Assembly: GCF_003334815.1 (NCBI RefSeq)
Contig: NZ_QOWO01000104.1
Source of the DNA: Escherichia coli
Lineage (GTDB): Bacteria; Pseudomonadota; Gammaproteobacteria; Enterobacterales; Enterobacteriaceae
DNA length: 1,195 bases
Strand: one strand, 5' to 3'
The notes below the pieces were generated by a model. The model ran no database searches, had not been told where the DNA came from, and saw only the letters and a list, made by a program, of their open reading frames with translations. A program made the translations under genes and the position numbers. This document shows, piece by piece, positions 1-1,195 of this stretch. Each line of letters opens with the position of its first letter. Position 1 is the first letter of the stretch.

Positions 1-16
1 GGAAGGTGCGAATAAG
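1..16. repeat. Terminal inverted repeat of IS5, transposase-distal end (IRR in element orientation)
   Basis: ggaaggtgcgaataag pairs with the reverse complement of 1180-1195; the single mismatch is at position 13 (T here, C in the partner). Confidence 0.9.
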
Positions 17-39
17 CGGGGAAATTCTTCTCGGCTGAC

Positions 40-150
40 TCAGTCATTTCATTTCTTCATGTTTGAGCCGATTTTTTCTCCCGTAAATGCCTTGAATCAG
101 CCTATTTAGACCGTTTCTTCGCCATTTAAGGCGTTATCCCCAGTTTTTAG
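40..150. promoter_or_regulatory. Subterminal phased T-tract region downstream of insH: putative intrinsically bent DNA with a possible IHF-like site, matching the IS5 end implicated in activating adjacent host promoters
   Basis: Seen in sequence: short T-runs at about 47-49, 52-54, 62-64, 72-77 and again 115-117, 124-126, 135-137, 143-147, i.e. about 10-bp helical phasing. A near-match to the IHF consensus WATCARNNNNTTR lies at 105-117 (aatcagcctattt; last position mismatched). Established knowledge: the transposase-distal end of IS5 has been reported to contain a permanent bend and an IHF site required for IS5-mediated activation of neighbouring operons (for example glpFK, flhDC, bgl). The exact site positions are my inference. 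Confidence 0.4.
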
Positions 151-1127
151 TGAGATCTCTCCCACTGACGTATCATTTGGTCCACCCGAAACAGGTTGGC
201 CAGGGTGAATAACATCGCCAGTTGGTTATCGTTTTTCAGCAGCCCCTTGTATCTGGCTTTCACGAAGCCGAACTGCCGCTTGATGATGCGAAACGGGTGC
301 TCTACCTTGGCACGGATGCTGGCTTTCATGTATTCGATGTTGATGGCCGTTTTGTTCTTGCGCGGATGCTGCTTCAAGGTTTTTACCTTGCCGGGACGCT
401 CGGCGATCAGCCAGTCCACATCCACCTCGGCCAGCTCCTCGCGCTGTGGCGCTCCTTGGTAGCCGGCATCGGCTGAGACAAATTGCTCCTCTCCATGAAG
501 CAGATTACCCAGCTGATTGAGGTCATGCTCGTTGGCCGCGGTGGTGACTAGGCTGTGGGTCAGGCCACTCTTGGCATCGACACCAATGTGGGCCTTCATG
601 CCAAAGTGCCACTGATTGCCTTTCTTGGTCTGATGCATCTCCGGATCGCGTTGCTGCTCTTTGTTCTTGGTAGAGCTGGGTGCCTCAATGATGGTGGCAT
701 CCACCAAAGTGCCTTGGGTCATCATGACGCCTGCTTCGGCCAGCCAGCGATTGATGGTCTTGAACAATTGACGGGCCAGTTGATGCTGCTCGAGCAGGTG
801 GCGGAAATTCATGATGGTGGTGCGATCCGGCAGGGCGCTATCCAGGGATAATCGGGCAAACAGGCGCATGGAGGCGATTTCGTACAGGGCATCTTCCATG
901 GCACCGTCGCTCAGGTTGTACCAATGCTGCATGCAGTGAATACGCAGCATGGTCTCCAGCGGATAGGGCCGTCGGCCATTGCCCGCCTTGGGATAAAACG
1001 GCTCGATGACAGCGGTCATATTCTGCCATGGCAGAATCTGCTCCATGCGGGAGAGGAAAATCTCTTTTCGGGTCTGACGGCGCTTAGTGCTGAATTCACT
1101 ATCGGCGAAGGTGAGTTGATGGCTCAT
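147..1127 (-). CDS. insH: IS5 family DDE transposase InsH, 326 aa, full-length and apparently intact
   Basis: Seen in sequence: uninterrupted 981-nt ORF (ATG at 1125-1127 on the minus strand, TAA at 147-149), no frameshift or internal stop, filling almost the whole element between the IRs. Recognition: the product ([35 protein letters not shown] ... [23 protein letters not shown] ... QWERSH) is the IS5 InsH transposase as I recall it. Inferred catalytic residues from the IS4/IS5 DDE family signature: D143 (LVDAT, codon 699-701), D220 (SADAGY, codon 468-470), E276 with K283 ([10 protein letters not shown] codon 300-302). Confidence 0.95.
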
Positions 1128-1132
1128 GATGT

Positions 1133-1137
1133 CCCTC
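1133..1137 (-). promoter_or_regulatory. Shine-Dalgarno-like ribosome-binding site for insH (GAGGG on the minus strand)
   Basis: Minus-strand sequence upstream of the start reads ...CCCAGAGGGACATC-ATG; the purine-rich GAGGG lies 5 nt upstream of the ATG, a typical spacing. Confidence 0.5.
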
Positions 1138-1179
1138 TGGGATGCGCTCCGGATGAATATGATGATCTCATATCAGGAA
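1138..1179 (-). promoter_or_regulatory. Putative insH promoter / 5' leader between IRL and the RBS; exact -35/-10 not confidently placed
   Basis: AT-rich interval immediately inside the IR (minus-strand reading: TTCCTGATATGAGATCATCATATTCATCC) with several weak -10-like hexamers (CATATT, TCATAT), a GATC Dam site (1164-1167) and a short inverted repeat ATATGA-N5-TCATAT (1157-1173). Position is consistent with the transposase promoter lying in the IR-proximal region, but no hexamer pair with good consensus and 17-bp spacing was found by eye. Confidence 0.3.
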
Positions 1180-1195
1180 CTTGTTCGCACCTTCC
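1180..1195. repeat. Terminal inverted repeat of IS5, transposase-proximal end (IRL in element orientation)
   Basis: cttgttcgcaccttcc; its reverse complement ggaaggtgcgaacaag matches bases 1-16 at 15/16 positions. Confidence 0.9.

Follow-up and report, generated by a model that had tools for sequence, protein, structure and literature searches.

A complete IS5-group insertion sequence of Escherichia coli, very probably a natural recombinant of IS5 and ISKpn26

A 1,195-bp stretch of Escherichia coli DNA (contig NZ_QOWO01000104.1; the whole stretch is referred to below as the window) was found to consist of exactly one insertion sequence (IS) of the IS5 group, without flanking DNA. The element is very probably a complete, autonomous and currently mobile member of the IS5 family that arose as a natural recombinant between canonical IS5 and ISKpn26. 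It is real, active and very common, and it is nothing new in kind: IS5-group elements belong to the best-known insertion sequences of bacteria, hundreds of RefSeq records already annotate this exact sequence, and an earlier note made from the letters alone had rightly described it as not novel. The same note had named the element simply IS5. That name stands for the group and for positions 1-183, which are those of the K-12 element; it does not stand for the element as a whole, which is only 94.2-94.6% identical to K-12 IS5 and is of the ISKpn26/IS5Y type from 184 to 1195.

Mosaic structure of the element

K-12 IS5A and IS5Y and copies from Klebsiella plasmids were used as proxies for the ISfinder reference sequences. 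Alignment of the window to IS5A of E. coli K-12 MG1655 gave 65-70 differences depending on gap placement (94.2% identity in global alignment, 94.6% by BLAST), every one of them within positions 184-1195 and none within 1-183. Alignment to three 1196-bp ISKpn26-type copies from Klebsiella and Enterobacter plasmids (L006, L007 and L009) gave 95.9-96.6% identity globally and 96.0-96.7% by BLAST, with the opposite distribution: approximately 40 of 42 differences were within 1-183 and only 2 within 184-1195, corresponding to divergences of ~22% and 0.2%. The two differences from the Klebsiella copy L006 in the latter segment include a synonymous T at position 303 that is private to the window lineage, which fits a single hybrid origin followed by spread. 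The uneven placement of differences was significant by Fisher tests against both IS5A (p = 9e-6) and the ISKpn26 type (p = 3e-32).

For finer resolution K-12 IS5A was designated type a and the IS5Y copy of E. coli DH1 (L019) type b, and the window was scored at the 107 diagnostic sites that separate them. From 18 to 150 all 39 sites were a-type; from 184 to 1178 the b-type was seen at 67 of 68, and the exception, position 368, is a site at which the DH1 reference differs from every other element. The diagnostic sites thus show a single clean switch from a to b, which divides the window as follows.

151..183: crossover interval; 33 bp that are the same in both parental types and lie within the last codons of the transposase gene, between the last IS5-type site (150) and the first ISKpn26-type site (184)
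184..1195: ISKpn26/IS5Y-type segment; comprises the greater part of the transposase gene, its 5' untranslated region (UTR), the promoter and the left terminal inverted repeat

Compared with K-12 IS5 (InsH1), the element has the same length of 1195 bp, identical 16-bp inverted repeats (IRs), the same gene layout, the same 4-bp duplication at YTAR and the same -35 and -10 hexamers, and its positions 1-183, including the whole of the 177-bp bent-DNA and integration host factor (IHF) enhancer region known as IB, are the same base for base. It differs from K-12 IS5 by 42 synonymous and 6 non-synonymous codons and by a rewritten 5' UTR at 1132-1161. With ISKpn26, which is the sequence type of K-12 IS5Y, it shares a nearly identical 184-1195 segment, the IRs, the target duplication and the family label assigned by PGAP; the difference lies in the 3' terminal 183 bp, where approximately 40 positions differ, including two 1-bp indels that make ISKpn26 1196 bp long and the window 1195. 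Judged by these alignments, the element is colinear with neither IS5 nor ISKpn26.

Divergence between types a and b is spread along the whole length of the element: the types differ at 39 sites of the 146-bp 3' non-coding region and at ~19 of the 68 positions of its 5' counterpart, and in the transposase gene 42 codons differ synonymously and 6 non-synonymously, which are roughly neutral levels overall. Since the two types are diverged throughout, and each segment of the window is identical to one of them, the most economical interpretation makes a and b old lineages and the window a recent recombinant.

Both parental types were found to reside together in K-12 strains, which carry the usual IS5 copies and one 1196-bp ISKpn26-type copy, IS5Y; the name ISKpn26 is thus not Klebsiella-specific. 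The IS5Y copy used as type b is located as follows.

E. coli DH1, NC_017625.1, 2449684-2450879: IS5Y (L019), interrupting an Ail/Lom-family gene (lomR) next to stfR in the Rac prophage; labelled ISKpn26 family by PGAP

Mosaic IS variants are a familiar phenomenon, and other IS5/ISKpn26 mosaics with different breakpoints were found, so that exchange between the types is recurrent. The copy on Enterobacter hormaechei plasmid pLAU_ENC1 (L005) is a-type to 702 and mostly b-type after it, with a switch near 702/708; that of E. coli TL-14 (L020) has an a-type tract only at 110-150; that of pMCR10_2641_1 (L021) is a-type at both ends; and L007 and an 'IS5B family' fragment (L022) are b-type apart from a patch of a-type at 1011-1023. 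These Enterobacterales mosaics are built from the same two sequence types as the window, and their IRs and ORFs (open reading frames) are complete where the copy is full length.

The patch at 1011-1023 was noted in its own right. Seven of its 13 nucleotides differ between the types, changing Thr-Ala at residues 38-39 of the transposase to Val-Glu, and it segregates independently, being IS5-type in the otherwise ISKpn26-type L007 and L022 and also in L005 and L021.

Copies, target duplications and mobility

Full-length copies 100% identical to the window were found on numerous complete chromosomes and plasmids of E. coli and on plasmids of Salmonella and Edwardsiella. The flanks of 14 base-identical copies were read, 11 in a first set and 3 from the chromosome of Edwardsiella anguillarum. 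In all 14, identity ended exactly at window positions 1 and 1195, and in 10 of them the element was bounded by a perfect 4-bp direct repeat of the form YTAR (CTAA in five copies, TTAA in two, TTAG in two and CTAG in one), the target duplication characteristic of the IS5 family. At three loci the halves of a split gene abut the element, the genes being those for a fimbrial chaperone, an SbmA-like transporter and the IncHI helicase TrhI. For trhI the empty site was reconstructed by joining both flanks with a single CTAG, and more than 1100 IncHI plasmids carry an uninterrupted trhI that matches the resulting 596-bp sequence at 100%; the inserted DNA was therefore exactly the window plus its 4-bp duplication.

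These results agree with most of what the earlier note had proposed. It had taken the window for one complete element cut precisely at its tips, with the first and last 16 bases as IRs, an intact ORF and the look of transposition competence, and it had expected a 4-bp target duplication; the exact ends in the 14 copies, the trhI empty site, the 15/16 complementarity of the tips, the intact 326-aa ORF with its motifs, the identical copies at many loci and the YTAR repeats bear out each of these points. It had also stated that the insertion context is invisible in the window, and rightly so. Since identical copies occur on both chromosomes and plasmids, the source replicon and insertion site of the window copy are not recoverable from its sequence.

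A full-length copy at ≥99% identity was present in 381 complete E. coli records. The hybrid junction, taken as positions 110-260, was present at ≥99% identity in 508 of the 3709 E. coli records with any IS5-group match, on a scale where a-type would score ~98% and b-type ~92%. Among the best 5000 plasmid matches, 97 records were ≥99% identical. When the exact 85-bp junction was sought in ~100,000 species-representative genomes, it was found only in the fish pathogen E. anguillarum ET080813, five times on the chromosome and once on a plasmid (L023-L028; NZ_CP006664.1 and NZ_CP006665.1). Three of the chromosomal junctions belong to exact full-length elements; the plasmid match does not extend over the full length. 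CTAA duplications bracket two of these exact copies, and the third has unmatched TTAA/CTAG flanks, which suggests recombination between copies.

An identical copy was also noted on the IncI1-type plasmid pEc631_1 of E. coli 631, a Norwegian bivalve isolate (NZ_CP040264.1), where it overlaps the annotated 3' end of a phosphoethanolamine transferase coding sequence by 23 bp (L004:4173-4195). The IS may there truncate or alter the C-terminus of an mcr-like gene.

Transposase gene, terminal repeats and regulatory regions

The terminal repeats and the transposase gene were located as follows, the gene lying on the minus strand.

1..16: IRR, the right, transposase-distal terminal IR, GGAAGGTGCGAATAAG; the same in all a-type and b-type elements aligned
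147..1127, minus: transposase gene (ins5A/insH-like); the only long ORF, 326 aa, with an ATG start, intact
1180..1195: IRL, the left, transposase-proximal terminal IR, reverse complement GGAAGGTGCGAACAAG; the end at base 1195 is set by the empty-site test and the target duplications

Bases 1-16 (GGAAGGTGCGAATAAG) and 1180-1195 (CTTGTTCGCACCTTCC) are inverted repeats of one another with 15 of 16 positions complementary, and the probability of such a match at both exact termini by chance was calculated by us as ~1e-8. A 16-bp IRL has been described for IS5 (PMC11894529). Short IRs at the exact ends of an element of ~1.2 kb, as seen here in the 14 identical copies and at one empty site, are a feature of the IS5 family.

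The transposase contains Pfam domains DUF772 (aa 51-124, E = 6e-21) and DDE_Tnp_1 (aa 138-312, E = 8e-35) and scored 366.8 bits against NCBIfam NF033581, 'IS5 family transposase' (cut-off 140). Signature motifs of the IS4/IS5 type were found as DATII, DAGY and R272-x3-E276-x6-K283, from which D143 (DATII), D220 (DAGY) and E276 (R-x3-E-x6-K) are predicted to be the catalytic residues. A single DDE transposase with a DDE_Tnp_1 fold and IS4/IS5 signatures is as expected of the family, and all of the testable defining features of the IS5 family and IS5 group were present in the element. The protein is RefSeq WP_000019440.1, annotated by PGAP as 'IS5-like element ISKpn26 family transposase'. It is identical to K-12 InsH1 at 320 of 326 residues (98.2%), and most of the six substitutions, S14T, V38T, E39A, R249K, R274K and A315V (K-12 residue first), are conservative. 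Against the ISKpn26-type protein of L006 it is identical at 325 of 326 residues, the one difference being H326Q (His in the window, Gln in ISKpn26); the C-terminal His326 is thus a-type and the remainder of the protein b-type. In the transposase orientation the ORF spans 69-1049.

The regulatory features lie on either side of the gene, in its 3' terminal region and across its promoter.

1..177, minus: IB region, the 177-bp IS5 3' end; 10 A/T tracts (permanent bend) and a central IHF site, base for base that of K-12 IS5
85..97, minus: IHF-binding site of the IB region, ATTCAAGGCATTT; core TCAA intact, two mismatches to WATCAANNNNTTR
1162..1190, minus: weak sigma-70 promoter of the transposase gene; -35 GTGCGA at 1185-1190 inside IRL, 17-nt spacer, -10 GATCAT at 1162-1167

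In K-12 the IB region is both required and sufficient for the glpFK promoter to be activated in an IHF-dependent and phase-dependent manner, and its TCAA...TT IHF site has been mapped by mutation (PMC2753651); activation of glpFK and dependence on IHF have also been reported in PMC11894529. By its identity to the K-12 sequence tested there, the IB end of the window would be expected to have enhancer activity. A scan for the IHF consensus with one mismatch allowed returned only a chance-level site at 1171-1183; the IB site, with two mismatches, was located from the literature. The IS5-type IB (window 1-177) and the ISKpn26/IS5Y-type IB (L019:301-478) differ at ~40 of 178 positions, and the IHF core TCAA of IS5 and the window reads TCGA in ISKpn26/IS5Y. 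In both IB types there are 10 A/T tracts, placed at almost equal offsets, and the A+T content is 0.56, which suggests that the DNA bend may be conserved while the sequence drifts.

The hexamers and spacing listed above for the promoter are identical to those of the ins5A promoter mapped in K-12 IS5 (PMC11894529), and on that likeness they probably serve as the promoter of the window transposase gene. The K-12 promoter is nearly silent alone, and upstream host DNA can make with it a Crp-dependent fusion promoter (PMC11894529). No strong promoter was found in a consensus promoter scan of the window, which fits a promoter that is essentially silent. The 5' UTR downstream of the -10 hexamer is b-type, with ~18 positions different from K-12 IS5. 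GATC (Dam) sites were observed at 1164-1167, in the -10 hexamer, and at 154-157, in the IB region near the stop codon. The window as a whole is not enriched for GATC (5 observed, 7.8 expected). Dam control of the transposase promoter occurs in IS10 and IS50.

Within the transposase gene a perfect palindrome was observed.

1020..1037 (extended 1017-1040): perfect 18-bp palindrome ATTCTGCCATGGCAGAAT, in the codons for ILPWQN, centred on an NcoI site

Only type b (ISKpn26/IS5Y) has it in perfect form, and in K-12 IS5 it is broken by two synonymous changes (1020 and 1023); by our estimate ~0.005 such 18-bp palindromes are expected by chance per 1.2 kb. The 1011-1023 patch directly adjoins it. An Rfam scan of both strands at E ≤ 1 gave zero matches and thus no known RNA element. 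Three weak terminator-like hairpins were counted in the window, which is uninformative beside a shuffle mean of 1.4 (sd 1.2).

Three plus-strand (antisense) ORFs of 84-98 aa, at 555-851, 196-462 and 222-476, are open in both element types and might correspond to the historical ins5B/ins5C frames. They were not taken for genes, as the substitutions between the types show no protein-level constraint beyond frame geometry.

Alternative readings, origin and significance

That the window is canonical IS5, either the K-12 element or a near-identical isoform, is very improbable. The two share their length of 1195 bp, their IRs, the layout of the 326-aa ORF and the YTAR duplication, and they are identical over 1-183. 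Under the ISfinder rule, by which isoforms are similar at >98% of amino acids and/or identical at >95% of nucleotides (PMC6807381), the transposase (320/326) lies above the protein threshold and the element (94.2-94.6%) below the nucleotide threshold, so that the verdict depends on the criterion taken, the rule being 'and/or'. The reading is opposed by the confinement of all 65-70 differences to 184-1195, where the window is ISKpn26/IS5Y-type at every informative site, and by PGAP, which places the window protein in the ISKpn26 family and names true K-12-type copies 'IS5-like element IS5 family'; it is already largely refuted. A plain ISKpn26 of the Klebsiella reference type, without any hybrid character, is extremely improbable. 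Both isoform values do lie above their thresholds here (96.0-96.7% to 1196-bp copies labelled ISKpn26 family by PGAP, and one amino acid difference), the PGAP label is the same, and the ORF coordinates 69-1049 agree with the published entry (1196 bp, ORF 69-1049, reference NC_016845; PMC8796155). Colinearity over the whole element nevertheless fails, with ~40 of the 42 differences packed into 1-183, where the window has none from IS5, and the lengths are 1195 and 1196 bp. It is unlikely that the NC_016845 reference itself bears an IS5-type 3' end, since ISKpn26 copies on plasmids are reported as 99.78% identical to this reference on average (PMC8796155) and have b-type sequence in 1-183.

The possibility that the chimera is an artefact of assembly or extraction, or a dead relic, carries virtually negligible probability. 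IS copies are classic sites of assembly collapse, and the window comes without flanks; against this, base-identical copies are present in hundreds of genomes that many laboratories finished independently in many different years, SE11 (2008) among them, they stand at different loci with proper target duplications, and E. anguillarum holds five chromosomal copies together with a diverged plasmid junction match. The ORF and motifs, moreover, are intact. The artefact and relic readings are refuted by the target duplications, the trhI empty site and the E. anguillarum copies. The earlier note had proposed comparison with IS5-group references for signs of truncation or chimerism; the element is formally chimeric, with its switch in 151-183, and it appears as a natural mobile lineage that is neither truncated nor artefactual.

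Some points weigh against the reading of the element as a mobile natural recombinant. Four of the 14 copies lack a perfect duplication, their flank pairs being CTAA/TTAA, CTAC/CTAA, TTAA/CTAG and CAAG/TGAG, although most of these look most simply like the result of later exchange between copies or of point mutation. Transposition of this exact variant is deduced from population data, no experiment on it having been found. In addition, three sequence types alone cannot prove the direction of recombination, and the derived mosaic might in principle be IS5 or ISKpn26.

The behaviour and origin of the element may be pictured as follows. The 326-aa DDE transposase would be made from the weak promoter starting inside the left IR and would recognise both 16-bp terminal IRs. 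As the population data show, the element inserts its 1195 bp at YTAR tetranucleotides, duplicates these 4 bp and disrupts genes. The bent-DNA/IHF enhancer of the IB region, in the 3' terminal ~150-183 bp, would derive from canonical IS5, and the transposase gene, 5' UTR and promoter from the ISKpn26/IS5Y type. Homologous recombination or gene conversion in the 33 bp common to both (151-183) is the most likely way in which the two parts came together, and the hybrid would then have dispersed among E. coli, Salmonella and Edwardsiella, by transposing and by travelling on plasmids.

A more far-reaching proposal, which we regard as quite improbable, is that the hybrid is a selected combination and not a neutral by-product of recombination, in which a K-12-type IB enhancer with an intact IHF core, a proven activator of glpFK-type promoters, is paired with an ISKpn26-type transposase and 5' UTR and which would perhaps produce more gene-activating insertions, or be regulated differently, than either parent. 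On a wider view, the IS5-group elements of Enterobacterales may be evolving as a modular recombining population, with end modules, the 1011-1023 patch and the palindrome among its parts, and not as discrete named ISs.

The context that could make the window copy itself of interest is absent from the window, and the finding bears mainly on how such elements are named and interpreted. Annotators sort them under one of two names, 'IS5' or 'ISKpn26', as in work on colistin resistance through mgrB disruption or on the context of blaNDM-5; the IS5 copy beside an IS30-family transposase gene on the IncX3 blaNDM-5 plasmid was K-12-type IS5. With intermediates like the window in circulation these names describe a recombining continuum, and typing by best hit can therefore mislead. 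The window variant retains without any change the IS5 end for which activation of a neighbouring promoter (glpFK) has been demonstrated, whereas ISKpn26 proper has a diverged version of that end; predictions of gene activation by 'ISKpn26-family' insertions should therefore check which end module is present.

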